Positions 1-40,326 of a stretch of 40,326 nucleotides of DNA are shown piece by piece. The notes beneath the pieces are model-generated. The model was not told the DNA's origin and did no database searches. It saw only the letters and a list, made by a program, of their open reading frames with translations. The DNA lies in IMG/VR virus record IMGVR_UViG_3300037422_000319, positions 1 through 40,326 of that record; one strand, 5' to 3'. The position numbers and the translations under genes were made by a program. How positions within the stretch are numbered: position 1 is the first letter of the stretch; each line of letters begins with the position of its first letter. The DNA comes from a virus.

Positions 1-127
1 ATAGTACTCTCTAACCATTTTCAAAAGCATCTTGACGGCAACAGACCAGACAGCAGCCCGGGCAGCAGACCAGGCAGCAGACTCGGCAGCAAACTCGGCA
101 GAAGACTCGGCAGCAGCCCGGGCAGCA
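1..127. repeat. Terminal direct repeat; 1-127 is identical to 40200-40326, so the window closes into a circle of about 40,199 bp
   Basis: Base-by-base comparison of window start and end. Identity starts at 40200 (atagtactctctaacc...) and runs to the last base. Confidence 0.95.
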
Positions 128-465
128 TACAATTCATCTTGGGTCGCTTTTCCATTAACAAACCGCAAACAAACTCGCAAAATGCGATCAAATTCTTTTT
201 TATTACCAGCTTTTATTTGCTTTCTACAAGTCTTGGCTTGTGCAACTGCAAAACATCGTATAAGGCCCGCGTCAAGAAACTTCTCACGACAAACCACCCA
301 TACTTTGTCTCTAGAAGGCACGTTTTTCATTTTCAAAATGTCGATTGCCGTGCCTTTCCAGGACTCAGGAATATACTTGATTGGATCGTAACAAGGACCA
401 AAAGAACGAATATCGGCCATTGTAATAATGGTTAATTTTGGTTTTTTGATTTTTTTAAGTTTCAT
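1..465 (-). CDS. Hypothetical protein with C-terminal Ala-rich AAxSAA(W/E) repeats. The ORF runs off the window start; after circular closure it ends at TAG 40191-40193 (about 157 aa).
   Basis: Absent from the ORF track because it has no stop inside the window. My translation: MKLKKIKKPKLTIITMADIRSFGPCYDPIKYIPESWKGTAIDILKMKNVPSRDKVWVVCREKFLDAGLIRCFAVAQAKTCRKQIKAGNKKEFDRILRVCLRFVNGKATQDELYAARAAAESSAEFAAESAAWSAARAAVWSVAVKMLLKMVREYY then AK-stop across the junction. GAGGA lies 8 nt upstream of ATG 465. Same strand as neighbours. Alternative in-frame ATGs at 480 and 420. Confidence 0.7.
   Translation of the reverse strand, partial: MKLKKIKKPKLTIITMADIRSFGPCYDPIKYIPESWKGTAIDILKMKNVPSRDKVWVVCREKFLDAGLIRCFAVAQAKTCRKQIKAGNKKEFDRILRVCLRFVNGKATQDELYAARAAAESSAEFAAESAAWSAARAAVWSVAVKMLLKMVREYY
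37..132. repeat. Eight tandem degenerate 12-nt units (GGCAGCAGACNN), in frame, encoding the Ala-rich repeats of the minus-strand CDS
   Basis: Read directly: ggcaacagacca / gacagcagcccg / ggcagcagacca / ggcagcagactc / ggcagcaaactc / ggcagaagactc / ggcagcagcccg / ggcagcatacaa. Confidence 0.9.
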
Positions 466-469
466 AACA

Positions 470-559
470 CTAATCCTCATTTTTTCTTGGAGCCGCAACG
501 TAAACGAGCAGCCCAATTATTACAATTATCGCTCCTAAAGTCTTAATAATTAGTCTCAT
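470..559 (-). CDS. Small single-pass membrane peptide (29 aa), not in the ORF track
   Basis: ATG at 559 lies 2 nt after the prepilin stop. Translation: MRLIIKTLGAIIVIIGLLVYVAAPRKNED. Stop TAG 470-472 lies 4 nt before the next ATG (465). Fills an otherwise empty gap; no clear SD. Confidence 0.4.
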   Translation of the reverse strand: MRLIIKTLGAIIVIIGLLVYVAAPRKNED

Positions 560-561
560 AA

Positions 562-1002
562 TTAATTAAAAATATTGAGTTTAAATACCAATACCTTTAA
601 CTCCCCAGAATACGAGTACACAACCCATAATGAATTGCTTGCGTCATTAACCCAATTTGGATTACTTACACGGTTAAGTGTGCCCAAAGTGTGCCCGCAG
701 CCCGCTCCATCGTCATAAATGCGTACAGTATCCCCGTCAACTTTCTTTCCATAATACTGGCCGTCAATTTGAGTGCATGCCGAATTTATTATAACTTTTC
801 GGTCTGGGTTACTGGCGAAATATTGATCAAGAGCTGCCTTAAGAGCAGCCGCTTGCGTAATACTAGCCTGTAACGCGTCCTGCTTTTTCTTAGCAAGTTT
901 GAGGCTAATTAAAATTGAGCTATTGAAATAATAGCCAATTAAGCCCAAAACGGTAACGGCGGCCATGACTTCCAATAGCGTAAACCCTTTAATATTTCTC
1001 AT
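562..1002 (-). CDS. Type IV prepilin / T2SS pseudopilin-like protein (class III signal peptide)
   Basis: N-terminus MRNIKG-FTLLEVMAAVTVLGLIGYY: short basic leader, Gly(-1), Phe(+1), Glu(+5), hydrophobic helix. Two Cys in the C-terminal half (SACTQ...GAGCGH). ATGA start/stop overlap with the upstream gene. Confidence 0.8.
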   Translation of the reverse strand: MRNIKGFTLLEVMAAVTVLGLIGYYFNSSILISLKLAKKKQDALQASITQAAALKAALDQYFASNPDRKVIINSACTQIDGQYYGKKVDGDTVRIYDDGAGCGHTLGTLNRVSNPNWVNDASNSLWVVYSYSGELKVLVFKLNIFN

Positions 1003-1235
1003 TTTTCACTTCCCTTTTTAAGTACACCTAGGTAAGTACCGCGTTTAAAATAAATCGTATTATACGCCGATTTATAATGCATTTCCCATACCAGCCCTGA
1101 AGAGCCTAAATTGCTTGGAGGGAGTTGCGCAGCATTGACAATTTGTTTAGCCCAATACTTTACAAGCTGTTTACGCAGGCTAACTGATTTAGGTTTTTGA
1201 CTTTGTCTAACTTTAAATACCTGTGACTTACTCAT
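999..1235 (-). CDS. Hypothetical protein (78 aa from ATG 1235)
   Basis: Track ORF 999..1241 begins at a GTG. ATG 1235 forms an ATGA overlap with the upstream stop. Confidence 0.55.
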   Translation of the reverse strand: MSKSQVFKVRQSQKPKSVSLRKQLVKYWAKQIVNAAQLPPSNLGSSGLVWEMHYKSAYNTIYFKRGTYLGVLKKGSEK

Positions 1236-1474
1236 AAACACTCCAATTTTTCAGAAGCCCTCGCTTCGATGGATTCCTTTAAAGCCCTCACGGCACTTGA
1301 GTGATAACGCTTAGCCCAAAGCAAAGCCTGAAGGCTATTTAGAGGCTTTTCTATCGTTCTATCCGGCAGCGCCGATCGTAAACAAAAGCCATCAATGCCT
1401 TCTAACAGTGTTTCTGTAAAATGAAGCGTCTCTGTACTGCAGGGCAGAAATCTAATTGCTATTTTTTTCAGCAT
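1232..1474 (-). CDS. Hypothetical protein (80 aa from MLKKIAIRF...)
   Basis: Track ORF 1232..1558. Internal ATG 1474 is preceded by GAGGAA at 7 nt. The upstream part of the track ORF overlaps a better-placed 48-aa ORF. Confidence 0.55.
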   Translation of the reverse strand: MLKKIAIRFLPCSTETLHFTETLLEGIDGFCLRSALPDRTIEKPLNSLQALLWAKRYHSSAVRALKESIEARASEKLECL

Positions 1475-1598
1475 AGTTAATTTCCTCATCCACTTGAGTG
1501 ATAAAGTATTGCAGAATCGCTTGATATTCCTCATCGGTTTCGCTGTCTGCAATTGCAATTAGCCAATTCTTAAAGTCTTGTAACTTAGCGATACTCAT
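1452..1598 (-). CDS. Small acidic protein (48 aa), not in the ORF track
   Basis: ATG 1598 lies 2 nt after the stop of the Gp88-like gene. Translation: MSIAKLQDFKNWLIAIADSETDEEYQAILQYFITQVDEEINYAEKNSN. Confidence 0.5.
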   Translation of the reverse strand: MSIAKLQDFKNWLIAIADSETDEEYQAILQYFITQVDEEINYAEKNSN

Positions 1599-1600
1599 AG

Positions 1601-2236
1601 TTATTTTACCTTACTCCAATTGGTATTGCTGTATGACTTTCCGCCATGGTATACCAGCCCCACTTTGTCGTTTGTTAAGGCCTTGTCGTCTTGCTTACTC
1701 ACATCGGCATAGCCCGCTGCTCTTAACTCTTTAAGCGAGCTAAATACACGACTATGCGCCTGAATAGCAGGTTGAATCAGTTTATCTTGAGTACCGCCGT
1801 AAGAGTAAATTAGCCTAAAGTTAGAAGGCACTTTGCCGTCTTTTTTAAGGCCCTCAAAGAGAGAAACCATCTTAATATAGGCGTAGAATTCAACGTTAGG
1901 CAGCGCGTTCATTATACTAATCCAACGTTGTGCGTACTCGAGTGAGTAAAAATCTCCAGAATCATGGATGCGTATTCTTTCAGCTCGTTTAGAAACAATT
2001 TCCTCAATCATGCGGGCCTCAAAGTCAGGGCTTTGAGTAGCCGTTAAGCGTTCCTCGAATACCCGCGCAACATTGGAGAACCGATATGCCCCCATTGTAG
2101 CATAGCATCCGATAGCGCAGGCCGCCGCATTCGGGCATGTCTTAAAGCCATTAGCAGAGCGGTATGCCGGTATGCCAAAGTTAAACGTGCGCCGTTTAGA
2201 CTTTTTAATTTTAGAATTTCTAGTAAGTAATTCCAT
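1601..2236 (-). CDS. Gp88-family-like protein (Cys triad N-terminal domain), function unknown
   Basis: LLTRNSKIKK...FNFGIPAY...TCPNAAACAIGCYATMGAYRF...IRIHDSGDFYS...FYAYIKM matches my recollection of the Pfam GP88 pattern (TCP..C..CYA..G.Y, RiH.sGDFy, FYaYTK). Confidence 0.55.
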   Translation of the reverse strand: MELLTRNSKIKKSKRRTFNFGIPAYRSANGFKTCPNAAACAIGCYATMGAYRFSNVARVFEERLTATQSPDFEARMIEEIVSKRAERIRIHDSGDFYSLEYAQRWISIMNALPNVEFYAYIKMVSLFEGLKKDGKVPSNFRLIYSYGGTQDKLIQPAIQAHSRVFSSLKELRAAGYADVSKQDDKALTNDKVGLVYHGGKSYSNTNWSKVK

Positions 2237-2277
2237 ATTGAGTAGCTCCTATTTATTATGCTTTGCGTTTACTTAAC

Positions 2278-2517
2278 TTAGATGCAATTTCCTGGCCACT
2301 GCGCTTCAGGGCCCTCACCGTTTAATTGAACGCCGGAATACAGGCCGGACTTCGCGTGTGCCGTAAAACCAGACAAGCGTTCAAAGTCTGCGCATTCAGC
2401 ATTCCAGGAATGCGCAATACGTGCAATATCTAGGCAGGCCTTCTTATAGGCTTCGAGCACCTTAACCTTGTCGCCCGTCTCAATATCCCTAAATCTCCAA
2501 TAATGTGTATATCCCAT
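2278..2517 (-). CDS. Hypothetical protein (79 aa)
   Basis: ORF on the operon strand, tightly spaced with its neighbours. Confidence 0.55.
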   Translation of the reverse strand: MGYTHYWRFRDIETGDKVKVLEAYKKACLDIARIAHSWNAECADFERLSGFTAHAKSGLYSGVQLNGEGPEAQWPGNCI

Positions 2518-2608
2518 AATATTACTCCTTAATGTTTAGTAACTCCAAGTTAAGGCAGAGGCTTGTAATGTGATAACCAAGCCTCTGCTTTGTGTATGCT
2601 CTCAAGGC

Positions 2609-3379
2609 TTAACGCACTTGAGTATAGTTAACTGCCAGGTCCCAGAGCCTCTGATTGACTGCTATTTGCCTGTCAATGCTTTTAATAGCTCTAAGCTTAC
2701 GCATACCGCCGATAGAATCAGTGTTCACGTAAACCTTGCCCTTAAGAATTCGTTCCTGAACTCGGTTATACAATGTCCAGACATTTGGAACATTATCAGC
2801 GGCTCTATGATTCTCGTTAGTTAACTGATTGATATTATATTGGTTGACTTGAATGTCCAAATCATGCAATACAGTAGCCGCATAGTGCCACGCAATTGCA
2901 TCGTCGGCCGTGGTATTTTGCATAGACTCAATTTGATTAGAAACCATAGGCGCTTTGGCCGTTATAGCTCTTAGAGCAGCTGCGACTTTGCCGTCAGTAT
3001 AGCCGACATGTCGAACGCTATAAGACTGCGCAGTACCTTTGCTTACAACTAATCCGTTTGAACATACAATGCGATATAGCCCTAAGAGGAATTGAAAACT
3101 CGACATACCATTATGCGAATTCTTTAATAATATCCTAAGATTAGTATCGTTTGATACGCTCTTTAACTCGGTATGCTCGAATTCAATTAGATGCTGCGTA
3201 AAGTTGGGGTTGGTCGTTCGCGAGCGCTTTGCAGCTGCCTTAACAATGGACCACCCCTCGTTCTGCAATACGTTTATAACACGCATTGTAGGGATGAAGG
3301 CATAGCGATTTGAGAGTCCTTCTTCGGGAGCCTCTGCCAACGCTGCTAATGGCAATTCAACGGCATTTGAGTTATTCAT
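2609..3379 (-). CDS. DUF932/DUF945-family protein (phage/plasmid-like protein)
   Basis: Motifs FIPT...HLIEFEH...LRILLKNSHNGMSSFQFLLGLYRIVCSNGLVV are characteristic of DUF932 (NSHDG...G.fR.vC.NGlv). Confidence 0.75.
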   Translation of the reverse strand: MNNSNAVELPLAALAEAPEEGLSNRYAFIPTMRVINVLQNEGWSIVKAAAKRSRTTNPNFTQHLIEFEHTELKSVSNDTNLRILLKNSHNGMSSFQFLLGLYRIVCSNGLVVSKGTAQSYSVRHVGYTDGKVAAALRAITAKAPMVSNQIESMQNTTADDAIAWHYAATVLHDLDIQVNQYNINQLTNENHRAADNVPNVWTLYNRVQERILKGKVYVNTDSIGGMRKLRAIKSIDRQIAVNQRLWDLAVNYTQVR

Positions 3380-3564
3380 TTTGTTTCTCCTTTGTTAATA
3401 ACTTTATTAAGTAAAAAATCTAATTTACCTAAGGCCCGTGCCACTCCAGTTAAGGCCAATCCTCTATTAGTAGGCGCAGAATCATCTAGGATAGCCTTAA
3501 ATGCGCTCTCTAGTTCAATACTAATTTCCTTAAGAACGGTTACTTCACTTTTGTTCATAAACAT
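3376..3564 (-). CDS. Hypothetical protein (62 aa from MFMNKSEV)
   Basis: Track ORF 3376..3633 trimmed to an internal ATG just inside the upstream gene end (stop at 3545). Confidence 0.5.
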   Translation of the reverse strand: MFMNKSEVTVLKEISIELESAFKAILDDSAPTNRGLALTGVARALGKLDFLLNKVINKGETK

Positions 3565-3847
3565 ACTCCAATTCGCTATAGGTATTCCCCTCAACGCACT
3601 GGCACGATTCACACCAGTCAAGAGCATCCTCACCTACTCGGGAGACTGGCTCGTTACAATAACCGCAAAGCGTCAATTCTCGGGTATAACGCGTATAATC
3701 TAGGGAAATGATAAACTTTCCCCAAACAAAGGTCATAGCTCTATAGCCGCTATAATGATGGTAAGAACGCGACAATTCAATCTTAGTCCACGGCCAACGA
3801 GCCGACATTCCGACATACAATTCAGCATCTTTAATACGAATACGCAT
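3545..3847 (-). CDS. Hypothetical zinc-ribbon-like protein; first gene of the leftward early operon
   Basis: CGYC...(15 aa)...CESC pairs in the C-terminal third. GGAG lies 7 nt upstream of ATG 3847. Confidence 0.6.
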   Translation of the reverse strand: MRIRIKDAELYVGMSARWPWTKIELSRSYHHYSGYRAMTFVWGKFIISLDYTRYTRELTLCGYCNEPVSRVGEDALDWCESCQCVEGNTYSELEYVYEQK

Positions 3848-3945
3848 GGTATAACTCCACGGTTTCGAGGCGCCCGCTTACTAATACCCTGCGAACGCCT
3901 CAGTTTAGAGAAGGACCACGACTAAAATCTTATTAATCTATAATG

Positions 3946-4237
3946 CACGCGACATGCCAGTCACGCTAATCTAAGAAGCCCCTGATATTATTAGTAATGC
4001 GCCTTTGCAATACGCCAAAGCTTACAACAATATGCGGGAACGGTTCTGACACCTAGTCAGCTGTCTACAAGCCTGCTATGCTTATCACGCCCTAGACACT
4101 ATAAACTGGCATAAACATTGCCCTTGGCACGCTTACTGCCGTGTATGACACGCAAAAACCATGCCAAACGCCCTAATGTATGACGGCACGCCGCTTGCAT
4201 GCTGTATGACAGGCCCTCCGAATACACCTTGACACGT
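3946..4237 (+). repeat. Iteron-like array: six same-strand CACGC (plus one CACGT), three preceded by TGTATGAC
   Basis: CACGC at 3946, 3962, 4086, 4128, 4149 and 4187. CACGT at 4233. TGTATGAC at 4142, 4177 and 4203. All lie in the 744-bp ORF-free region. Confidence 0.6.
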
Positions 4238-4275
4238 AAGTAGTTGATATTGCAGGGGAATGAAGTACCCTCATT

Positions 4276-4300
4276 GGGTCAGCTGGGGGTGGGGCGTGGG
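4276..4300 (+). other. G-quadruplex-type motif (GGG-N6-GGGGG-N1-GGGG-N3-GGG), followed by CCCCC and a T6 run at 4323-4328
   Basis: gggtcagctgggggtggggcgtggg read directly. The most G-rich stretch I saw in the window. Confidence 0.5.
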
Positions 4301-4339
4301 CGAAGCGTAAGCTCCCCCGCCATTTTTTAGAACGCGCCC

Positions 4340-4387
4340 TAGACCAAAATAAAAAAGATGAAAACAGCTAAAAATAATTTTGGTCTA
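4340..4387. repeat. 11-bp perfect inverted repeat (TAGACCAAAAT / ATTTTGGTCTA) flanking a 26-nt A-rich spacer
   Basis: 4340-4350 and 4377-4387 are reverse complements. Spacer is aaaaaagatgaaaacagctaaaaata. Confidence 0.85.
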
Positions 4388-4423
4388 CAATGATTTCAAG
4401 GGCTTAGGAGAAAAAATGGGGGC

Positions 4424-4479
4424 TTGACAAGAAAAACTGAACTGTGCTACACTCCTATTATATAGCAAACGTTAGCTAA
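4424..4479 (+). promoter_or_regulatory. Rightward promoter P1 (TTGACA-N18-TACACT with TGn extended -10) plus downstream conserved box AGCAAACGTTAGCTAA
   Basis: TTGACA at 4424-4429, TGC-TACACT at 4445-4453, box at 4464-4479. Same CTTGACAA / TGCTAC / box arrangement as at 38104-38149. Confidence 0.6.
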
Positions 4480-4556
4480 ACCACACTAAGAGATAAGCCT
4501 CCGATACTGAGTATTGATACTCTGCAGAAAGCATAGAACCCTCCTTTAAAAAAGTC

Positions 4557-4591
4557 TTGACACCGCCAACTGGAGTTGGCATACTATTTCA
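4557..4591 (+). promoter_or_regulatory. Rightward late-operon promoter (TTGACA-N17-CATACT) with palindromic operator GCCAACTGGAGTTGGCA in the spacer; -10 ends 6 nt before ATG 4592
   Basis: TTGACA at 4557-4562, palindrome at 4565-4581, CATACT at 4580-4585, ATG at 4592. No SD before the ATG. Confidence 0.6.
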
Positions 4592-4882
4592 ATGAAGCAA
4601 GTCTCCACAACCGAAATCGAGAAGCGGTCCAAAGATCTCGAAGAATCCTTTAATTCTAAAAAAGCTGAGCATGAGAGTATTAGAAAGCAAATTGAGCAGG
4701 CCAGCCAGCGTCAGCAGCAACTTTACCAGGAATTGGTAAGTATTCAGGGCGCTTGGAATGCTCTTAGGAGCCTTCTGCCAGAGAAGCCAGCCACTCCTGT
4801 TGATAAAGTACCAGCAAAGTTGAAGGCTGTTAAAGCTTCAAAGGACGCTATAAGTGCTCCTAAGACAGCTCAATCAGAATGA
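4592..4882 (+). CDS. Hypothetical coiled-coil protein (96 aa); sits where a small terminase subunit might be, but is not recognisable as one
   Basis: Track ORF, first gene of the late operon. Charged heptad-like sequence. Confidence 0.55.
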   Translation: MKQVSTTEIEKRSKDLEESFNSKKAEHESIRKQIEQASQRQQQLYQELVSIQGAWNALRSLLPEKPATPVDKVPAKLKAVKASKDAISAPKTAQSE

Positions 4883-5303
4883 CTTCGGGCCAATCTTTAA
4901 ACTTTGGTTCTCGGAAATTTATCGCGGCGCGGTAAGAAAACTCTATCGCCGAGATCAGTTTTTCCTAAAGACTTTCAATGACTTATCGCAGGTCTTTAGT
5001 ACCGAGCATCGATGTTTTGTTGGTGCCGAGGAGAATGGCAAGATTGTTGCTGCAGCTCTTGGTGTAGGCAGTCCCCTAGATGCCAGGCTATTCCAGGGCG
5101 TCTTTCTCTGGGTAGATTCCAGCCGTCGAAATCAAGGGCATGGTGAGGCCCTAGCGAATGTCCTCTATTGCTGGGCAAAAGAGCATGGCTACTCCAGATT
5201 CGCCGTAGAGGCCCCTTCTAAGAATATCCCCTTAAAGCGAATTTTGCAAAAAATAGGCTTACATAGTACCAGAACGATTTGGGTTAAGGTAGAGAGTGAC
5301 TAA
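4854..5303 (+). CDS. GNAT-family N-acetyltransferase
   Basis: Acetyl-CoA motif A: VFLWVDSSRRNQGHGEALANVLYCWAKEHG (R/Q-x-x-G-x-G/A), followed by a beta-strand/helix pattern typical of GNAT. GTG start; overlaps both neighbours. Confidence 0.7.
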   Translation: MLLRQLNQNDFGPIFKLWFSEIYRGAVRKLYRRDQFFLKTFNDLSQVFSTEHRCFVGAEENGKIVAAALGVGSPLDARLFQGVFLWVDSSRRNQGHGEALANVLYCWAKEHGYSRFAVEAPSKNIPLKRILQKIGLHSTRTIWVKVESD

Positions 5304-6666
5304 TTTACTACCAGAACCAATCCGGCAGCGGCGAGAGCTTTTTTGCCTATTACAGGAAAAGAGGCGACGAACGCTCCCAGTAGATCTTTTTGAACGGCAG
5401 TCCCAGGTCAATAGCTCCCTTGACTCAGGTGTGTCCCGAATCGCGCTAGAAGTCGGGAGACGCGGGGGGAAGACCGACTTCCTCATATGGAAGTTAGGGG
5501 ACTTTGCTATAAACGCCCCCCGCGCAAATCTTGCGTATATCGCTAAAACCCTTGATTCTGCAAAGAGTATCGTTTGGTCCAAATTTCAGAAAATGTTCGA
5601 AGGGATTCCGGGAGTAGACTTTAAAGAAGGAACTCTAGAGATTCACTTCTCCAATCACTCAAAAATAAAGCTATACGGCGGCGATAAGGACCCGGATGTT
5701 ATTCGAGGAATGGCGCATCATGGCGTAGTTATTGACGAAGCTGCTCATATAAAGGGCCTTAAATATATTGTCGAAGAGATCGTAGAACCTACTCTTATTG
5801 ATTATGCTGGGTGGCTGGTACTGGCATCTACCCCCTACGGGTATGGCCCATTCTACGAATTTTGTCACTCGCCCCATTGGACATATTTCCACTGGACCGG
5901 CTATGATAATCCCTATATCCCACATCGAGAATTGGATAAGATGAAAGTTAAGTATGGCGAAAATAACGATGTGTGGTTACAGGAATATATGGCTATTCCA
6001 GTTCGCCACTCAGGCCTAGTTTTCTCCAATCTGCGCCCTTACCCACCACATGTTATTTCAGGCAAGGGTTTCGAGCCCAACCCTACTTGGCAGTACATCA
6101 TTGGGTTAGACCCCGGCACCGATGCCCCCACCGGCTTCGGCCTTTTCGCTTACGACCCCTTGAAAGATATCTTGTATTGCTTAAAGGCTAAGAATTTAGT
6201 AGATGCTTCTCTTAATACTATGGAAGCCTTGATTCGAGATGAATTGGTTAAGTATCCAAACTTAATAGCAATTGTAGACCATCACGCCTCTCTAGTCATT
6301 AAAGAACTCGGAAATAGAAAGCTTCCAATCGTGCCTTGTGGCACTAAAGACAGAATGGGCAGTTATAGTCGATTGATTGCTCGTATAGAGAGAGAACGTT
6401 TTGTTATTGTTAGAGAAACTAGTGAGGATCTGCTGACTGAGTGTATGCTTTTAGAATGGAAGCCAGCTCGAGGCGGGGAGAACGATACAAATGGTGTTAT
6501 CGGGAGCGATCATTGCGTAGATATGACTAGGTATGCAAATGAATATTTTTGGTATAAAGAAATTGTAGAAATCGAAGCGGATAAAACTAAGGAATTCATT
6601 GATCCTTTTGAGAAAAAGATCATGGAGGAAATGAATAAAGATAAGGATGACGATTCATGGATGTAA
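5296..6666 (+). CDS. terL: Terminase large subunit
   Basis: Walker A GRRGGKT, Walker B VVIDEAAH, C-terminal RNase H-like nuclease acidic motifs IIGLDPGTD and DHCVDMTRY. Followed by the portal. Confidence 0.9.
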   Translation: MTNLLPEPIRQRRELFCLLQEKRRRTLPVDLFERQSQVNSSLDSGVSRIALEVGRRGGKTDFLIWKLGDFAINAPRANLAYIAKTLDSAKSIVWSKFQKMFEGIPGVDFKEGTLEIHFSNHSKIKLYGGDKDPDVIRGMAHHGVVIDEAAHIKGLKYIVEEIVEPTLIDYAGWLVLASTPYGYGPFYEFCHSPHWTYFHWTGYDNPYIPHRELDKMKVKYGENNDVWLQEYMAIPVRHSGLVFSNLRPYPPHVISGKGFEPNPTWQYIIGLDPGTDAPTGFGLFAYDPLKDILYCLKAKNLVDASLNTMEALIRDELVKYPNLIAIVDHHASLVIKELGNRKLPIVPCGTKDRMGSYSRLIARIERERFVIVRETSEDLLTECMLLEWKPARGGENDTNGVIGSDHCVDMTRYANEYFWYKEIVEIEADKTKEFIDPFEKKIMEEMNKDKDDDSWM

Positions 6667-6878
6667 AAACTATTGCTGAATTAGGACAACTAGTGGATAT
6701 GCTAAGAGAAAAAGGCGTTTATCGTTATGTCTCCCCTGCTTTATCTATTGACATAGCCCCAAATATGTTGTATACTCCCCTCAAGTCCGAAAATCCCCCC
6801 AAAAAGGGCGCTAAAGCGTCCCCTAATAAACAAAAAGAAGCCGACGAGGCTTACGAGTACGGTGAGGAACAAGCTTAA
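6657..6878 (+). CDS. Hypothetical protein (73 aa)
   Basis: Track ORF; ATG overlaps the terminase end and its stop overlaps the portal ATG (TAATG). Confidence 0.55.
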   Translation: MDVKTIAELGQLVDMLREKGVYRYVSPALSIDIAPNMLYTPLKSENPPKKGAKASPNKQKEADEAYEYGEEQA

Positions 6879-8740
6879 TGTCTGTACAATCAATTCGTTC
6901 CGGGTCTTTAAAAGATAAATTCTTTTATGAAGGCCCTAGAGATAAAGTTCATAATGCTATTTGGGAGACTTTTAAGTCGTATAAAAATATTTATAGAAGA
7001 CAGCACACAGAATGGCTTAAGTTGGCTAGACAATACAATAATCGCCAGTGGGACCTAGCGAGTTTCAATTCCTTCTCTCAGGAATCCCACCCGGGTCAAC
7101 TCTCTGGTAATAGAATGACGCTTAACGTTGCCAAGAGTCTAGTAGATATTATCCATTCCCGTATAACCAGCCATCAGCCTGAAACTCTAATCCTCATGGA
7201 AAAGAACAGCCAAAAGGCTGAAAAACAAGTTACCTACGCTAATGCTTTTTTGAGAGAACGTCGTAAGACTTTGAAATTAGAAGGAAAAGAATCTGATACT
7301 TTTCTGGATAGCTGTATTTACGGAACTGGCCTCCTACTAAATTGGTTCAATCCCACTCTCCGCGTTAATGGGAAAAAGATCGGTGAAATTGAAATTAAGA
7401 GAGTCTTACCCTACTACTACATGGTAGAGGATTCGGCAGAGGCAGAGAATTCCAATTGGGGGCTTCTTCTACAATTCGAAAATATTAAGGATCTTAGAGC
7501 CTTATATCCAGAAATAAAGTTTAATGTTGATCAAAATGCCCAGGATTTTCAGAAGTCCCGCCTAGTGGGGGTTAAAAAAGAGACCGTCCCTGTACTTTAT
7601 TTTTGGCATCGAAAGACTGAAGGCATGCCCAATGGCCGTTTCATAAAGTGTACCAATACCGCGACCTTGGAGTATGAAGACTATGATGATGTTGAATTGC
7701 CTGTAAGGGCTCTGCGTTATTCCAGAACTACTAGTGGTTTCTGGGGTATCGGCGTCTCCCATACCGTTAAGAGCCTCCAAATCGAGATTAATAAGATGCT
7801 TTGGCACATTAGCCAAAACCAGAATTTTCACGGGCGTCCAAGAATTGCGATTGAAAAGGGAAGCAATGTATTTCCTGAGTCTATAGCCAACGGCTTGGGT
7901 TACGTGGAGTATACGAATAAGCCTCCGACTCCATTGGTATTTAATCCAACTCCCCCAGAGGTGTTTGCTCATTTTGGTACTTTGATTGAACGGGCGTACC
8001 TTGAAAATGGTATATCCTTATCTTCTGTTACTGGAGAACCTACCCCTGCAATGCGATCGGCGGCTGCTCTAGAGAGTGTAACTGAGCGAGAAAACAAGAG
8101 ATTTGCCCGTACTCTTCTTGACTATGAAATGTTTAAGCTGGAGAACTCGTCAAGAGTTATGAGGCTGGCCAAGAAGAATTATAAGAAGGATGATGAGCGC
8201 TGGTTCAAGGTTATCGTAGATGCTAAACGCTATGAAAAAATTGCGTTTGATCAGATCGAGGCCGGAGATGAGGATTATCACTTCAGGCTATCTAGCATGA
8301 GTTCTTTTGGAAATACTAAGGCCGGACAACATCAGACTATTCTTAACTACGTCCAAGCAGGATTAATTAAAGATCCTTCAGAAATACTTGATTTACTTCA
8401 ACTTCCTAATGAGGATCGCATATTTGATACTGTTTTACGAGATCAGAAGATCGCTAGAGAAGAAAACATCCGCATGCTGGATGGTGAATCCGTAGAGGTT
8501 CTGGAATGGGAAGATCATGAGATCCATCTCAAGGAACACTTTGCTTTTGCTAAAGAAAATAAGTTTGATCCCAATTTCCCGGATGCTAGGCCCCAGTTCG
8601 ATGAGCACATAAGACAACATCTTGCTCAGAGAGCTAAAGCCCAGCAAGGTCAGGCAAATCAGGTTGCTGCCGGAAATGCATCAGAACAGCTTCAAGAACA
8701 GGCTGCTCAGGCGCAGGCCCCAACACCAAATCAAGGCTAA
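6878..8740 (+). CDS. Portal protein (by size and position)
   Basis: 620-aa ORF between terminase and scaffold/capsid, with a Q/A-rich acidic C-terminal tail. Confidence 0.7.
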   Translation: MSVQSIRSGSLKDKFFYEGPRDKVHNAIWETFKSYKNIYRRQHTEWLKLARQYNNRQWDLASFNSFSQESHPGQLSGNRMTLNVAKSLVDIIHSRITSHQPETLILMEKNSQKAEKQVTYANAFLRERRKTLKLEGKESDTFLDSCIYGTGLLLNWFNPTLRVNGKKIGEIEIKRVLPYYYMVEDSAEAENSNWGLLLQFENIKDLRALYPEIKFNVDQNAQDFQKSRLVGVKKETVPVLYFWHRKTEGMPNGRFIKCTNTATLEYEDYDDVELPVRALRYSRTTSGFWGIGVSHTVKSLQIEINKMLWHISQNQNFHGRPRIAIEKGSNVFPESIANGLGYVEYTNKPPTPLVFNPTPPEVFAHFGTLIERAYLENGISLSSVTGEPTPAMRSAAALESVTERENKRFARTLLDYEMFKLENSSRVMRLAKKNYKKDDERWFKVIVDAKRYEKIAFDQIEAGDEDYHFRLSSMSSFGNTKAGQHQTILNYVQAGLIKDPSEILDLLQLPNEDRIFDTVLRDQKIAREENIRMLDGESVEVLEWEDHEIHLKEHFAFAKENKFDPNFPDARPQFDEHIRQHLAQRAKAQQGQANQVAAGNASEQLQEQAAQAQAPTPNQG

Positions 8741-13576: not shown

Positions 13577-13981
13577 ATGGTTCTTCGGCTTAGAAGAGGC
13601 GCTAGAGAAAAGCTTTCGACGCACTTCAATTCTGAAGAATTCGACTGCCATTGCAAGAATCGCGACTGCGACTCTACGCTAGTTGATACTAATTTAATAG
13701 CAAATCTGGAGGTTCTTAGAAACATTCTGGGGGGCATTAAGCTTGCGATCAGTAGCGGCTATCGTTGCGAAAAACACAATAAAGCGATCGGCGGAGAACT
13801 CGACAGCCAACATACTTATGGCAAAGCCGCCGATTTGGTATCAGCCACAGTTAAACCAAAAGTAATTGCTGATGCAACTGAATTAGTTCCCGGTTTTGTT
13901 GTCGGAGGGGTAGGAAGATACCCCTCTTTTACACATGTAGATGTAAGAAGCGGAAAAGCGCGTTGGGGCTCAAATGGCTAA
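13577..13981 (+). CDS. Peptidase M15 (VanY / D-Ala-D-Ala carboxypeptidase-like) cell-wall hydrolase; candidate endolysin or virion lysin
   Basis: SGYRCEKHNKAIGGELDSQHTYGKAADL ... FTHVDVR gives the H-x6-D ... H zinc-ligand pattern of the Peptidase_M15 families. Confidence 0.8.
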   Translation: MVLRLRRGAREKLSTHFNSEEFDCHCKNRDCDSTLVDTNLIANLEVLRNILGGIKLAISSGYRCEKHNKAIGGELDSQHTYGKAADLVSATVKPKVIADATELVPGFVVGGVGRYPSFTHVDVRSGKARWGSNG

Positions 13982-24731: not shown

Positions 24732-24920
24732 ATGAAAGAGTATAAGGAAATGTCTAAGATTTGGCAGGACGAGGAAGACGAGGAAATGCTTAAAAACATT
24801 AAGTCCCCTACCCCAGTCCACTTTAAAGGCAAAACCTATTATCTCCTGCCTGAATCAGTCTGTATTCGCAGTATTAGAGGCTCCTCTGATTCGGAATTTT
24901 CGATCGTGGTTTTTAATTAA
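24732..24920 (+). CDS. Hypothetical protein (62 aa from MKEYKEMSK)
   Basis: Track ORF 24561..24920 trimmed. ATG 24732 follows the upstream stop (24709) and a GAGGGAA SD. Confidence 0.5.
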   Translation: MKEYKEMSKIWQDEEDEEMLKNIKSPTPVHFKGKTYYLLPESVCIRSIRGSSDSEFSIVVFN

Positions 24921-25267
24921 TGGCGGACGATAAAGACATATTGCAGGTGCTGGGGGAGATAACTGCGACTCAAAAGCTTCAACAGGAGGCCCTTAGGGAC
25001 ATTTCTGATACCTGTAGAGCCAATACCGAGACTTTAATAAAGAATACAGAACAATTAGAATACCACATTCGCCGCACCGACATCATAGAAGAAAAGCACG
25101 AAGGATTCATGATTCTAACCGATAAACGTCTGGATTTATTGGAGAATGACCGGAAAGCGCGGGTCGCCATCAAGAAGGCCCTCTGGAAAACACTAGGAAA
25201 AGCTTCCTTCTTAGCAGGGGCCATTGTAGCGATTATAGAGGCTATTAGGGCCTTAATGAGGCTGTAA
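24920..25267 (+). CDS. Tail-anchored membrane protein (coiled-coil N-terminus, C-terminal TM); possible lysis regulator or holin partner
   Basis: C-terminal KASFLAGAIVAIIEAIRALMRL hydrophobic segment. Adjacent to the holin-like gene at the end of the late operon. Confidence 0.4.
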   Translation: MADDKDILQVLGEITATQKLQQEALRDISDTCRANTETLIKNTEQLEYHIRRTDIIEEKHEGFMILTDKRLDLLENDRKARVAIKKALWKTLGKASFLAGAIVAIIEAIRALMRL

Positions 25268-25269
25268 TA

Positions 25270-25506
25270 ATGAAAAGCATATACCCCATTGACCCTAAGA
25301 CCAAGAAGCGATCTGTGACCCTCCTATTAGTTATGGTAGCTAGTTTAGCAGTGCTTTCAAATATCGCCTTAGCGGCTCTAGGCTATGTTAAGGAGGAGTT
25401 GCCTATGGTTAGGGAATTCTTCTTCGGGGCCTTAGGGGCGTATACAGCAAGAAAGTTTACATTCTCTAAGGATTCCGTTGACATAGAGGAAAGTTCTAAG
25501 GAGTAA
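25270..25506 (+). CDS. Holin-like protein (78 aa, two hydrophobic segments, charged C-terminus)
   Basis: VTLLLVMVASLAVLSNIALAALGYV and FFFGALGAYTA segments, with an acidic/lysine tail. Near the end of the late operon, followed only by the small 25648-25821 ORF. Confidence 0.5.
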   Translation: MKSIYPIDPKTKKRSVTLLLVMVASLAVLSNIALAALGYVKEELPMVREFFFGALGAYTARKFTFSKDSVDIEESSKE

Positions 25507-29347: not shown

Positions 29348-29515
29348 TTAAACATCCCAGTTATCCTCACTTAAACAATGAATGCAGTATAAAAAATCCC
29401 CATCATCTAACTTATCGCCACAATCTACGCAATATTTTTGGTCACAGGATTCGCAGAAGAGTTCCCCCTCACTAGTAGTAATTATTTCATCTCCACAATT
29501 GCAATACTTACGCAT
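29348..29515 (-). CDS. Zinc-ribbon mini-protein (55 aa), not in the ORF track
   Basis: TAATG overlap with the metallophosphoesterase stop. Translation: MRKYCNCGDEIITTSEGELFCESCDQKYCVDCGDKLDDGDFLYCIHCLSEDNWDV (four Cys pairs). Confidence 0.6.
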   Translation of the reverse strand: MRKYCNCGDEIITTSEGELFCESCDQKYCVDCGDKLDDGDFLYCIHCLSEDNWDV

Positions 29516-30210
29516 TACAGTTTCCCCGTCCAGCGTCCCCTTCGATTTAATTTCATAGGGATAAAAGTAGGAACTCCATTATTGATTACGCCAACTCCTA
29601 GAATTGGCTTATCCTTTAGAAGTTTACCGTAATTAAAAGCATATGCGTGGCGGTCAATAAGACACCCTACATTGAACCCATATAACAGGTACTCTGCATT
29701 AGCCCAGTACTGAATGCCAGCCCAAGAGTGGAAGTGACCAAATACGGTGCTCTTCATATTCTTAAGGGGCAGCTGGAAGGAGGCCATTTTTCCCCCGCCT
29801 GTAATAGCATCGCCGTGCTCATAGCGAACCCCGTCAATGTCCCAATTCTCTGCCCACTGCCAGCCCTTTGGGGCCTTTAAAAATTCTCTATAATCCCTGA
29901 GATAGGCCTTAGGAATGCCGTGTTTATAGGCCTTTCTAAAAATGCGGGACGTGTGATTAGACTCACAAAGCTTCATGTCTGGAAAAGCTTTATACCAATG
30001 TTTTAACTTTGCGAGAGAAGCGAGCAACTCATCGCCTGCCGACATACCATCCGGGTCATGGTCCCAATCCCCAAGCGCATGGTGGTCAATCTCGTCCCCC
30101 ACATTAACCACTACGTGGGGCTTTACTTTAGCTGCTACGGTTTTGACAAACTCTAGAGCATCCCGGTGCTCAAACGGAATCTGTAAGTCTGGTATTACAA
30201 GCACTCTCAT
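29515..30210 (-). CDS. Calcineurin-like metallophosphoesterase
   Basis: Motifs IPDLQIPFEH (D-x-H type), GDEID (GDxxD), ESNH (GNH), GHFH (GHxH). Confidence 0.8.
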   Translation of the reverse strand: MRVLVIPDLQIPFEHRDALEFVKTVAAKVKPHVVVNVGDEIDHHALGDWDHDPDGMSAGDELLASLAKLKHWYKAFPDMKLCESNHTSRIFRKAYKHGIPKAYLRDYREFLKAPKGWQWAENWDIDGVRYEHGDAITGGGKMASFQLPLKNMKSTVFGHFHSWAGIQYWANAEYLLYGFNVGCLIDRHAYAFNYGKLLKDKPILGVGVINNGVPTFIPMKLNRRGRWTGKL

Positions 30211-30416
30211 CGCTGTTCCCCGGGTCCCTTAACTAAATAGGGGAGACGTCTGATTACTGGGACTTCAATCCCCCTTCTGGTACATTCCTCTTGTATTAAG
30301 AGAAGTACAAGGATAGAGACTTCTTTTTCAGGCCCACTCATATGCCTGTTCATTATATTAGCCAAAGTGTATAAATGTTTAGACTCTATCCTAGAGTTAC
30401 TCAGCCTGACTTTCAA
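30207..30416 (-). CDS. Hypothetical protein (69 aa)
   Basis: Track ORF; overlapping start and stop with neighbours. Confidence 0.5.
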   Translation of the reverse strand: MKVRLSNSRIESKHLYTLANIMNRHMSGPEKEVSILVLLLIQEECTRRGIEVPVIRRLPYLVKGPGEQR

Positions 30417-30759
30417 ATCGGATATTTAAAAAATCCATTCGTTCCGATTTTCTTCCGCCACTAGATATATTTTCAGAACGAGTGCCTGCAACATACCCAG
30501 AAGCCTGCATGTCAACCACAAACCTTGCTACAACGGCTCGGTCAATATGAGTAACGTTAACTTCAATCTGATTAACTCCAGTATCAATAGCCTGAAGAAC
30601 TAGTTTTGTAATAGTTCTTCTAAAAGCCTGCTCGGCTCGTTTGGAGGCTTCTTCTGCTAGAAGAATCTCTGGCTCTTTCTTGGGCTCGGCGGCCTCGGCG
30701 GTCGCATTCGCTTCTGCTACCATGTCCTCAATCGGGCGTTCAATTGCTCTTTTAGTCAT
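30397..30759 (-). CDS. Hypothetical protein (120 aa)
   Basis: Track ORF in the operon. Confidence 0.55.
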   Translation of the reverse strand: MTKRAIERPIEDMVAEANATAEAAEPKKEPEILLAEEASKRAEQAFRRTITKLVLQAIDTGVNQIEVNVTHIDRAVVARFVVDMQASGYVAGTRSENISSGGRKSERMDFLNIRFESQAE

Positions 30760-30771
30760 CGGTCTCTCCTA

Positions 30772-31326
30772 TTAAGCTGCGCGGTCAAATTCTGGCGGCG
30801 CAATAAAAAGTTCGAAAATACTTCTCACTTCTGAAGCTATATCAAGTCTGGAACGAAGTAGCGATACAAAACTTGCAACTGCCCCGTCATCCTGCCCCTC
30901 TACCTCTAAGAAGAGCCTCCGATCAGAATCACCCTCTACTTTATAAAAGGCACATTCCAATTTAAAGCCTTCATAGTTAAGCTTATACAACATATAAGTC
31001 TTACTAATTTCTCCGAGAGGGTCCCCAAGAACAGACCTAAAAAATCCCTTAGGGTATTCCACATCTGTTATAAACTCATGCTCGAGACGGTCAATATTGT
31101 TGCCCTTATCCTTTGTCTTTACTGTAACTAAGGTTTCTCTTTGCCCCTCTGTACGCCTAACTCTAAGAAATTGGGCCTCTCCATAAGATCGAAAATAAGT
31201 ATCCGTATCCATGTATAAAGACGTGTCTGTAGTAATAACATCAATAGATGGGATACCCTCAATCGCTACCCTAAGATTCTCTAGAGCTGAAAATAAGCTA
31301 TCCTGGCCTCTAACTACAAACTTCAT
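30772..31326 (-). CDS. CYTH-like (triphosphate tunnel metalloenzyme / class IV adenylate cyclase fold) protein, divergent
   Basis: FLRVRRTEGQRETLVTVKTKDKGNNIDRLEHEFITDV and RRLFLEVEG resemble CYTH strands (lRiR...lT.K....R.E.E and fvEiE). The N-terminal ExExK is replaced by KFVVR. Confidence 0.4.
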   Translation of the reverse strand: MKFVVRGQDSLFSALENLRVAIEGIPSIDVITTDTSLYMDTDTYFRSYGEAQFLRVRRTEGQRETLVTVKTKDKGNNIDRLEHEFITDVEYPKGFFRSVLGDPLGEISKTYMLYKLNYEGFKLECAFYKVEGDSDRRLFLEVEGQDDGAVASFVSLLRSRLDIASEVRSIFELFIAPPEFDRAA

Positions 31327-31766
31327 TTGTTCCTCCCAGATACTCCATTAGGATCAATAGCCCCAATTGGTATTAGAAAAGCCTGCGGTGCTTCTCCAGG
31401 ATCTGCTATATCCTGTGTGGAGGCTTTTTCTAATTCTCGTAACTTTAATTCTAACTGAGCTAAAACATTCCAGGCTTCGTGGGCTTGGTGAAGAAGGCCT
31501 GACTGCGGGTCATACTCTTCTCCTCGGTGACGGCTATTTTGATGGCGTCCTTGAGCATCAGCGTAACGAGATTGGCCATTTGGGACTTGGAGCCAGCCGC
31601 TATCGCTATACTTAATCGAGCCCATGGTGCCAACTTTAACGACTTCTTGAAAGGCCCTAGCAAAATCTTTAAGTACCAAGTTGAAGCGTAGTTTGCCTGC
31701 ATCTAACTTAGCCCCTGGGGTGTGGGCATCATAGCCTAGGGGGTCTTTTTCAGAATTTCTTTCCAT
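31323..31766 (-). CDS. DUF5664 / dATP-dGTP diphosphohydrolase N-terminal-domain-like protein
   Basis: KLDAGKLRFNLV...VVKVGTMGSIKY...RYADAQGRH...EYDPQSGLLHQAHEAWNVLAQLEL matches the K.D.GK...Ga.KY...A..RH...D.eSG..H.a...N.l pattern. Start trimmed to ATG 31766 (GAGGA upstream). Confidence 0.65.
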   Translation of the reverse strand: MERNSEKDPLGYDAHTPGAKLDAGKLRFNLVLKDFARAFQEVVKVGTMGSIKYSDSGWLQVPNGQSRYADAQGRHQNSRHRGEEYDPQSGLLHQAHEAWNVLAQLELKLRELEKASTQDIADPGEAPQAFLIPIGAIDPNGVSGRNK

Positions 31767-32079
31767 GGCGAATTCCTCGTGTTTTATTGTATTCAAGTTT
31801 TTTATCTATAATAGTTTCCAAGTCTAATTTTTTATACGCCGAGTAATCAAGTAAACGGATAACGGCATCTGCTATTTCAGAGCTTAGGCCTTTCAATTTT
31901 CCTGTAACAGGGTCTGCCCAAGTCTCTTCTTCGCCTTTACGAAGGCACTCAACCGCTTCAGCTAACTCAGTTACAACAAGCATGAGAGCCTCTGTATCAG
32001 TTTTCTTGAAACCTTCTTCGTACCAACCGGCCTCAACTGCTAGTTTATGGCATTTATCTTGTAATTCGTTTAATCTCAT
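31750..32079 (-). CDS. MazG-like nucleoside triphosphate pyrophosphohydrolase
   Basis: ALMLVVTELAEAVECLRKG ... LSSEIADAVIRLLDYSAYKKLDLETIIDKKLEYNKTR shows the all-alpha NTP-PPase E-x2-E ... E-x2-D signature. Confidence 0.75.
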   Translation of the reverse strand: MRLNELQDKCHKLAVEAGWYEEGFKKTDTEALMLVVTELAEAVECLRKGEEETWADPVTGKLKGLSSEIADAVIRLLDYSAYKKLDLETIIDKKLEYNKTRGIRHGKKF

Positions 32080-32552
32080 TTAATAACCTTTAAGAACAGT
32101 ATGCCACGATTGCGGTACATAGGCTCACAATCTCCGGCATAGTCATCATCGATTGCTACAAATTTTTCATTTGGATGAGCTTCCATAAGTTCTTTAATTT
32201 TTTCAGATTTATACAAATGAGGTCCTCTCCAATCATTGTCCTCACGCATAATAACTGGGGCTTTAGGGAAGCAGTACTCTTCCAGCCAAGCTTCTGTTTC
32301 TTTTCTTTGACTCTCAGATCGTCCAGTTAAGTAATAAATAACATGGGGCTCTACGTCTTCAATGCCAATAAGTAGGTGACGAATTTCATCAATAGGCTCA
32401 TCCATATGTAATACATCTGGGTTATGAGCTTTATCTAACCACTGCTGAAAAGCCTTACGATCTTTTCTATCAGGAATGGCCCCAAACTTAGCGAATCGCT
32501 TCGTAACATCGGCACAAGTATTGTCTATGTCTACTATATAAATCACTTCCAA
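32076..32552 (-). CDS. HAD-superfamily phosphatase (nucleotidase / polynucleotide 3-prime-phosphatase-like)
   Basis: Motif I IVDIDNT (DxDxT), motif II YYLTGRS, motif III/IV K...VAIDDDY. Confidence 0.75.
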   Translation of the reverse strand: MEVIYIVDIDNTCADVTKRFAKFGAIPDRKDRKAFQQWLDKAHNPDVLHMDEPIDEIRHLLIGIEDVEPHVIYYLTGRSESQRKETEAWLEEYCFPKAPVIMREDNDWRGPHLYKSEKIKELMEAHPNEKFVAIDDDYAGDCEPMYRNRGILFLKVIK

Positions 32553-40190: not shown

Positions 40191-40326
40191 CTATTTGGCA
40201 TAGTACTCTCTAACCATTTTCAAAAGCATCTTGACGGCAACAGACCAGACAGCAGCCCGGGCAGCAGACCAGGCAGCAGACTCGGCAGCAAACTCGGCAG
40301 AAGACTCGGCAGCAGCCCGGGCAGCA
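40191..40326 (-). CDS. 3-prime end of the Ala-repeat protein gene (duplicate of the 1-127 copy plus the last 3 codons including the stop)
   Basis: Frame carried from 1..465 across the circular junction gives ...REYYAK-TAG, with the stop at 40191-40193. Confidence 0.7.
   Translation of the reverse strand, partial: AARAAAESSAEFAAESAAWSAARAAVWSVAVKMLLKMVREYYAK
40200..40326. repeat. Second copy of the 127-nt terminal repeat
   Basis: Identical to 1-127. Confidence 0.95.

Follow-up and report, generated by a model that had tools for sequence, protein, structure and literature searches.

The stretch of DNA analysed here (the window) is the whole of IMG/VR virus record IMGVR_UViG_3300037422_000319, 40,326 nucleotides, and carries on its minus strand, at 562..1002, a gene for a 146-residue protein that is very probably a substrate of the prepilin-peptidase type, with predicted cleavage after its sixth residue. 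Judged from the sequence, the class III (prepilin-peptidase type) signal of this protein is genuine and no chance match, and it is under strong purifying selection across a divergent family of relatives. The protein is pilin-like in its processing and assembly helix and in its lollipop layout, with a head domain that is an orphan; beyond the N-terminal domain it stands outside every known pilin family. On present sampling the family appears to be a rare single-gene module restricted to phage-like contigs. The parts of the gene to which we refer are as follows.

562..1002, minus strand: pilin-like gene, 146 residues, with a class III signal, a long alpha-1 helix and an eight-stranded beta head
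985..1002, minus strand: leader peptide MRNIKG, with Lys at -2 and Gly at -1; predicted prepilin-peptidase cut after G6
901..984, minus strand: mature N-terminus FTLLEVMAAVTVLGLIGYYFNSSILISL, the alpha-1N segment, a pilin-type hydrophobic helix with Phe+1, Leu+3, Glu+5 and Gly+14
580..807, minus strand: head domain, residues 66-141, with eight beta strands and the invariant C76, C102 and N114 (from alignment A1, described below, Foldseek and Pfam)

The prepilin-type signal and its conservation

The open reading frame (ORF) begins with an ATG and has 146 codons, and its product opens MRNIKGFTLLEVMAAVTVLGLIGYY (opening of the full-length product as read, MRNIKGFTLLEVMAAVTVLGLIGYYFNSS). A stop codon is in frame one codon 5' of the ATG, which fixes the leader at six residues and leaves no longer form, and a Shine-Dalgarno-like element (GGGAAG/GGAAG) lies 5' of the start. 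The cleavage-site motif is MRNIKG/FTLLEV, where the slash marks the predicted cut. The class III features are all present in MRNIKG/FTLLEVMAAVTVLGLIGYYF, namely a short basic leader, Gly at -1, a hydrophobic residue at +1, Glu at +5, and then about 20 hydrophobic residues. An earlier note on this DNA, made from its letters, had proposed such a signal, and profile searches bear it out. Residues 1-22 match Pfam N_methyl (PF07963) with 28.0 bits against a gathering score of 21.2 (E=1.5e-6), and NCBIfam TIGR02532 is matched with 23.0 bits against a cut-off of 16.3. N_methyl was the only match in a Pfam scan at E<=1, which gave no family for the head domain, and PHROGs has no real family for the protein, the match to phrog_10597 (E=0.019) covering the leader only. 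Local GC content of the gene is about 41%, in line with 42.7% for the genome.

An exhaustive HMMER search of 1.84 billion representatives gave 33 matches, about 25 of them full-length relatives of 123-221 residues and 25-42% identity. A word-seeded search of 5.8 billion clusters returned the window protein itself as the sole match, on a JGI contig of 40,326 bp, which is the window, and the same kind of search with the family profile added P0034 alone. All 20 relatives that were looked up are metagenomic, and all but one are in singleton clusters. Some of the HMMER matches rest on the head only, so that the family is defined by its head, beyond the generic pilin N-terminus. No cellular homolog of the head was found among the 1.84 billion representatives, where the full-length matches are all family members on phage-like contigs. 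Against the GenBank phages (50,697 records), tblastn with the pilin-like protein gave spurious matches at E=5 alone and megablast of window positions 1-8000 gave nothing. A scan of IMG/VR with alignment A2 yielded 599 pattern matches, none of which was confirmed. A hand-made degenerate pattern for the head motif matched five times in 185,579 species genomes, which equals the chance expectation, and all five were false by translation and tblastn.

The giant repeat proteins P0018 and P0033, which are among the HMMER matches, were considered as homologs and rejected, since they consist of Big_6/Big_9/cadherin-like Ig repeats and the profile-profile probability was 1.8%. The matches to giant repeat proteins have in common the motif GDTxxxYDxGxxxGT...N..W. 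The head motif GDTVRIYDDGAGCGHTLGTLNRVSNPNW of the window protein (residues 82-121; 640-760, minus strand) looks like the GDTITLYDGGTAIGTANVGSNGTW hairpin of Big_6/Big_9 repeats, and this resemblance accounts for inflated HMMER E-values against giant adhesins.

Conservation was counted in alignment A1, which holds 26 sequences of the family. Gly-1, Leu+3, Glu+5, Cys76, Cys102 and Asn114 are each present in 26 of 26. The residue at +1 is Phe in 18 members, Val in three, Ile in two, Met in two and Leu in one, and nothing else, and that at -2 is Lys or Arg in 22. Within the head, G107 and W126 are near-invariant, and mean pairwise identity is 0.34 for the head (residues 71-141) as against 0.33 for the helix. 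The leader has 5-8 residues in the window protein and most other members. A Gly at the cut site and an invariant Glu at +5 in the membrane helix are needed by prepilin-peptidase substrates and are dispensable for a plain signal-anchor. Because Gly-1, Leu+3 and Glu+5 have been kept in every member at about 33% pairwise identity, the signal is likely to be functional; conservation of the buried Glu makes a plain membrane anchor unlikely.

The head domain and its comparison with known pilins

A model of the protein made by AlphaFold without an alignment had a pLDDT of 65, and an AF2 model made with A1 reached a pLDDT of 92.4 and a pTM of 0.63. The latter has one continuous helix over residues 9-64 (56 residues) followed by eight short beta strands, which make up a compact head. 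Pilin alpha-1 has roughly 53 residues, close to the length of the helix in the model. A Foldseek search against 350,542 PDB chains gave no match at E<=1e-3, with pilins absent from the top 50 and a best TM-score of 0.25, and the structural match to PilA or GspG envisaged in the earlier note was thus not obtained. The top matches, to WD40 blades and PH/PTB domains, were rejected (TM-score <= 0.25), and nothing significant was found in BFVD, which holds predicted viral structures. The alpha-beta roll of type IV major pilins, in which alpha-1C packs on a four-stranded antiparallel sheet, was matched neither by fold nor by a hidden Markov model (HMM) of the head.

By sequence profile the likeness to pilins is confined to the N-terminal part. 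When the family profile was compared with all PDB sequences, 22 chains were matched and all 22 are type IV pilins or pseudopilins, including geopilin, PilA, MshA, TcpA, PilE, GspG and PpdD. Nearly all of these alignments end by about profile position 60, inside alpha-1, and none reaches the conserved head block. Equivalog models gave scores far below their trusted cut-offs (GspG TIGR01710, 23.4 bits vs 88.85; GspH TIGR01708, 22.4 vs 80; ComGE, 17.6 vs 49; ComGF, 15.6 vs 80), and the alignments to the GspG, GspH, ComGE, ComGF and GspJ models were confined to the N-terminal helix. Of the HMM families to which the earlier note had looked, those for the N-terminal methylation motif are therefore matched above cut-off and GspG is not; nor are the GspH and ComG families.

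The same note had read two cysteines in the C-terminal half as a pilin disulfide loop. Both cysteines (C76, codon 775-777; C102, codon 697-699) are indeed there and are invariant, but their placement does not readily fit: with a spacing of 26 residues they lie mid-head, the second of them 44 residues before the C-terminus, and they seem not to make a C-terminal D-region loop. Two invariant cysteines imply a periplasmic disulfide, and the head is a conserved, extracytoplasmic and probably disulfide-bonded domain.

At least two family members, P0002 (L005, 8058-8639) and P0010 (L017, 6001-6504), have an extension of about 53 residues with a CxxC...CxxC pattern before the G/F site, and in both a strong ribosome-binding site is found at the start of the long form only. 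The topology of the long form is consistent with a cytoplasmic leader. The Zn-ribbon-like module has the consensus C..CC.H...G.C..CG and is either fused or a separate gene. In L002 (2199-2381) and L004 (5615-5779) the motif of P0010, CKVCCKHDWEMGEYCIICG, is met again in small genes of their own immediately 3' of the pilin-like gene, and blastp links this motif to a CarD-like protein encoded two genes upstream of the homolog in L013 (2495-3226). The window protein has neither the extension nor the motif.

Gene order in the window and around the relatives

The neighbourhood of the gene in the window comprises the following features.

1..127: exact terminal repeat, identical to 40200-40326
470..559, minus strand: 29-codon ORF MRLIIKTLGAIIVIIGLLVYVAAPRKNED, for a putative single-pass membrane peptide that fills the 96-nt gap to the next gene
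999..1241, minus strand: upstream gene, 80 residues, its stop overlapping the pilin-like start as ATGA; without Pfam or PHROG match
1601..3379, minus strand: upstream early module of DUF932 (2609-3379), a 79-residue gene (2278-2517) and GP88 (1601-2236), from Pfam
3848..4591: gene-free divergent region of about 740 bp between the leftward non-structural and the rightward GNAT/terminase/structural blocks, from the ORF map

The terminal repeat is an exact direct repeat of 127 bp. By this repeat the contig is closed on itself, and it stands for a complete genome, either circularly closing or with terminal redundancy, of about 40.2 kb. In the closed genome the leftward gene chain continues from position 1 into ClpP and replication genes. 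The gene that spans the junction (start at 465, minus strand) encodes 157 residues with C-terminal AAxSAA-type repeats AARAAAESSAEFAAESAAWSAARAAVWS and has no Pfam match. From the divergent region the leftward block runs through small genes, DUF932, GP88, the pilin-like gene and the 29-codon ORF, and past the junction through an M78-like protein, ClpP, DUF669, DNA polymerase A, a trypsin-like protease, an HAD phosphatase, a MazZ-like dGTP diphosphohydrolase domain, CYTH, a metallophosphatase and HNH. The rightward block holds GNAT, large terminase, portal, major capsid protein, M15 peptidase, an SU10-type adaptor, an internal-virion/amidase-like protein and large tail genes.

The earlier note had placed the gene in an ATGA-coupled chain of early genes, and the gene order agrees: its start overlaps the stop of 999..1241, and the genes further upstream overlap or are 2 nt apart and are non-structural. 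From its sequence the ATGA overlap would amount to translational coupling. The divergent region is the probable start of the transcription unit that holds the pilin-like gene. Sigma-70-like sites are present around it, but not above the shuffled expectation, and promoter and terminator scans of positions 1-5400 were likewise at or below that expectation.

A scan of the roughly 50 ORFs of the window with Pfam or PHROGs revealed no pilus or secretion gene apart from the pilin-like gene, as the earlier note had stated, and no integrase or repressor gene was found in the window. Any pilin-like activity would therefore have to use the PilD and the assembly system of the host, there being no assembly machinery in the phage. 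Nothing was found in Rfam for the window, which also has no tRNAs and no clear spanin, lipobox spanins included. Its closest cultured phages are remote (DNA polymerase <=27%, capsid about 22% and terminase <=26% identity). No host could be inferred from the DNA polymerase, capsid, terminase or GP88, whose identities of 22-39% are to phages of unrelated hosts.

The 29-codon ORF had also been pointed out in the earlier note as a single transmembrane helix directly downstream of the pilin-like gene. It does exist, beginning 2 nt past the pilin-like stop and ending 4 nt short of the next ATG, and its product has one strongly hydrophobic segment (Kyte-Doolittle 2.63 over 19 residues) with basic flanks. 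No Shine-Dalgarno element precedes it. Tight packing between two genes and the clean single-helix profile make it a plausible gene, which we judge somewhat more likely than not to be a genuine one. It has no counterpart beside the homologs, where the genes on the 3' side are unrelated (an acidic 72-residue protein, Zn-ribbon proteins, a protein with two transmembrane helices, a lipoprotein and others), and we found no evidence that the peptide works with the pilin-like protein. An analogy with the phage protein PfsE was rejected on motif, the peptide having one Tyr, no Trp and no YxWGW.

The search for the same gene in other phage contigs, named in the earlier note as a check, was rewarded. 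Eleven genomic contexts of relatives were retrieved (L001-L006 and L012-L018). All are phage-like: small genes follow one another on the same strand over long stretches, and hallmark genes of phages are present. These hallmarks include DNA polymerase A, trypsin-like protease, ClpP, DnaB, RNR, RecA, a CarD-like protein, terminases, P22/SU10-type portals and M15 peptidase. The contigs range up to 87 kb, the family being spread over contigs of 40 kb to 87 kb, and GC content is 34-50% in the loci checked. In an all-against-all comparison of neighbours in nine loci (eight retrieved and the window) the pilin-like gene was the only gene in common, which argues that it has no conserved or dedicated phage partner.

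Particular arrangements do recur. In L012, on an unrelated 87-kb contig, the order of the window is kept (DUF932, GP88, two small genes, pilin-like gene), and blastp links between the window and L012 back the synteny of DUF932 and GP88. In L015 and L016 the order is pilin-like gene, DNA polymerase A, ClpP, MazZ-like gene and HAD. In L004 (5148-5779) and L017 (6001-6504) the pilin-like gene, alone or with a Zn-ribbon gene, is on the strand opposite to all its flanks, an arrangement that resembles an independently transcribed moron cassette; that of L017 lies between portal/structural genes. In three loci a SAM lyase gene is found 0.3-1.6 kb from the pilin-like gene. Genes for envelope-targeted proteins adjoin those of several homologs. 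One of these proteins is a lipoprotein that has an LLTSC lipobox and regions rich in Pro/Thr and in Cys, another is an FTGC lipoprotein with collagen-like repeats, and a third has two transmembrane helices (L012 10488-10850; L001 3414-3875; L003 4792-5187). These neighbours are unrelated to one another and hint at clusters of envelope-directed early genes.

Several other features of these genomes were noted. The module of DUF932, small gene and GP88 is found in the window (1601-3379, minus strand) and in L012 (7471-9501). Among cultured phages GP88 is best matched in Streptomyces phage Gilgamesh (39% identity); next come a Methanomassiliicoccales virus and Synechococcus phages, and this very wide spread of hosts suggests that DUF932/GP88 is another mobile early module. 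DNA polymerase A is directly followed by the trypsin-like serine protease at 33993-36561 (minus strand), the two ORFs overlapping by about 158 nt, and the same pairing is present in a distant relative (L004, 11246-13854). A phage ClpP is encoded in the window and in L015. A nucleotide-metabolism cluster at 29515-32552 (minus strand) comprises a metallophosphatase, CYTH, a MazZ-like dATP/dGTP diphosphohydrolase N-domain (PF18909, E=1e-24) and the HAD phosphatase. In some phages, enzymes of the MazZ type go together with modified-base (aminoadenine) pathways; a PurZ-like gene was not seen. After the tail genes (24920-25506, plus strand) are encoded a 115-residue coiled-coil protein with a C-terminal transmembrane helix and a 78-residue protein with one such helix, which may act as holin or in lysis. 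Far from them, inside the structural block, is the gene of the M15 endolysin-like peptidase (13577-13981).

Proposed action, alternatives and known phage pilins

What might a phage gain from such a protein? Type IV pili are among the commonest phage receptors. We propose that the protein is an early prepilin-peptidase substrate that enters or jams the type IV filament machinery of the host, alters the pili and thereby prevents pilus-dependent adsorption, a proposal whose chances of being right or wrong we judge to be evenly balanced. The protein would be inserted co-translationally into the inner membrane with its leader in the cytoplasm, and a host prepilin peptidase of the PilD/GspO type would cut after Gly6 and methylate Phe+1. 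Cleavage would leave a pilin-like molecule of 140 residues, made up of the hydrophobic Glu+5 helix and a family-specific, disulfide-bonded periplasmic beta domain. Through alpha-1N and Glu+5 this molecule could engage the type IV filament machinery of the host (type IV pilus, or a related type II secretion system (T2SS) or competence system), entering as a subunit foreign to the filament, of the tip or minor type, or as one that blocks the chain and stops elongation. Soon after infection the pili would thus be altered in make-up or put out of action, and neither competing phages nor the phage's own progeny could adsorb by way of pili to infected cells and debris. Since the phage has no assembly genes and no conserved phage partner accompanies the gene, the protein must act, if in this manner, through the machinery of the host. 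We infer cleavage, early timing, pilus engagement and the exclusion phenotype alike, and filament engagement, incorporation or blocking, and pilus loss are suggested by analogy with published phage pilins.

Several points weigh against this proposal. Every member of the family is known from sequence and computation alone. Early expression is deduced only from gene order, with promoter scans not above background. No cultured phage is closer than about 25-39% identity for any marker, and type IV pili in the host are a presumption. The head has no fold or sequence likeness to any pilin and so offers no structural evidence for packing in a filament, and the Zn-ribbon-like extensions of about 53 residues before the cleavage site, seen in at least two members, are atypical for PilD substrates.

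The protein could instead mimic a pseudopilin and enter or block the T2SS pseudopilus or a competence (Com/MSH-type) pilus, so as to stop secretion or DNA uptake. The best alignments to NCBIfam models of full families are indeed to GspG (residues 5-61) and GspH (5-82), then to ComGE and ComGF; GspG 5wda could be aligned through alpha-1C, including an ALxxALDxY stretch, and a short basic leader with a mature length of about 140 residues fits pseudopilins as well as T4a pilins. However, the pseudopilin scores are far under the curated cut-offs (23 vs 89, 22 vs 80 and 18 vs 49 bits), the alpha-1C likeness to GspG is seen in the window protein and P0002 only and not family-wide, and no similarity to a pseudopilin head domain was found, which leaves this explanation unlikely. 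To a similar degree we doubt that the class III-like N-terminus is a mere signal-anchor or PilD-dependent release device for a periplasmic beta effector with a non-pilus target, be it peptidoglycan, another receptor or a block of DNA entry, of which T4 Imm and Sp are examples. A head as conserved as the helix, with a fold that has no known match, would suit such an effector, as would the unrelated envelope proteins (lipoproteins and transmembrane proteins) that adjoin several homologs. On the other hand, the invariance of Gly-1, Leu+3 and Glu+5 is a signature of pilin processing and subunit contact that would be superfluous for anchoring or for Sec/YidC insertion.

It is very unlikely that the protein is the subunit of a phage-specified filament or adhesin that is built by host machinery and benefits phage or host through adhesion, biofilm formation or a receptor for a partner virus. 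Its N-terminus has all that a major subunit needs, and the pilins of the SNJ2 provirus are a precedent (PMC12426801), but there are no lysogeny genes in the window, the family is single-copy, little time for a beneficial filament is available in a lytic cycle, and a recognisable pilin fold is missing from the head. Least probable of all is that the members with long extensions are uncleaved bitopic proteins with a cytoplasmic Zn-ribbon and a periplasmic beta domain, the pilin-like motif of the family then being an ancestral relic. The ribosome-binding sites of P0002 and P0010 and the related Zn-ribbon gene adjacent in L002 and L004 speak for it; the short leaders of the window protein and most other members speak against it, and a relic motif would not remain invariant at such low identity. 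Finally, the family may have evolved in phages and not by copying a host pilin, with the universal class III signal giving access to whatever type IV filament system a host has and the head of new fold serving as the effector. P0002 and P0010 would then be two-compartment pro-proteins that PilD cuts in two, the Zn-ribbon protein staying in the cytoplasm and the pilin-like protein going to the periplasm or a pilus. We consider this version quite unlikely.

The earlier note had proposed a decoy or poison pilin, an idea that is less novel than it assumed, since phage pilins are already known in P-FimU, P-PilA and SNJ2. What is new here is the orphan head, a family found only on phage contigs, its spread over unrelated uncultured phages, and the Zn-ribbon fusions. 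The role of phage pilins in phage-phage competition at the pilus has been demonstrated experimentally only recently (2025-26) and for other proteins, and the cases previously described are recognisable copies of FimU or PilA in Pseudomonas and Xylella phages. Should a phage-only family act in the proposed manner, the principle would reach beyond mimicry, to a dedicated effector, and beyond prophages, to phages that are apparently virulent. Such a family would also offer a small module, not tied to one host, with which pili, pseudopili or competence could be manipulated in heterologous bacteria, and structural work would gain a new pilin head fold.

Among the known systems, F10-like Pseudomonas phages encode, as prophages, the minor pilin P-FimU, which becomes part of the pilus tip and keeps out phages that bind there (PMC12952977). 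The P-PilA of Xylella prophages has about 50% identity to host PilA, and its structures overlay on PilA within <2 A (PMC12952977). PilA-like genes, some of them truncated, have been reported in virulent phages as well, with early superinfection exclusion suggested (PMC12952977, Sztanko et al., Cell Rep 2026). Like P-FimU and P-PilA, the window gene is a phage-borne gene of pilin type that is not accompanied by phage assembly genes and would depend on host machinery, and the purpose shown or proposed is the blocking of pilus-dependent adsorption. Whereas P-FimU and P-PilA are recognisable homologs of FimU and PilA, the window family resembles pilins in the N-terminal segment alone and has a head without detectable relative; and whereas they are prophage morons, the window gene is in the early/DNA-metabolism block of an apparently virulent phage.

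The archaeal provirus SNJ2 encodes pilins with class III signals that act as major subunits and form abundant filaments via host machinery (PMC12426801, Xiang et al., Cell Rep 2025). Hijacking of host processing and assembly by virus-encoded class III-signal proteins, as proposed for the window family, is thus common to both. However, SNJ2 is archaeal and temperate and its pilins are major subunits, whereas the window has a bacterial-type signal with Glu+5 and no lysogeny genes, and a minor or blocking role is likely.

Non-pilin inhibitors of type IV pili that bring about superinfection exclusion are also known, namely Tip/gp05 and Aqs1, which act on PilB, and PfsE, a 30-residue inner-membrane protein that binds PilC (PMC8764522, PMC11436027). 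PfsE is the only pilus-blocking phage membrane peptide of roughly 30 residues that is known. The aromatic motif YxWGW of PfsE is required for PilC binding (PMC8764522). The 29-residue peptide of the window is like PfsE in size and membrane location, but lacks this motif and is not kept beside the homologs. Tip/gp05, Aqs1 and PfsE are, like the pilin-like protein, small phage proteins, but are unrelated to it in sequence and mode of action. Finally, with GspG, GspH and minor pilins of the FimU/PilV class the window protein shares the short basic leader, the G/F-T-L-L-E site, a mature length of about 120-150 residues and a long alpha-1 followed by an all-beta head. It differs from them in its sub-threshold scores, in having no Foldseek match to a solved pseudopilin or minor pilin, and in the location of its gene outside gsp, pil or fim operons.

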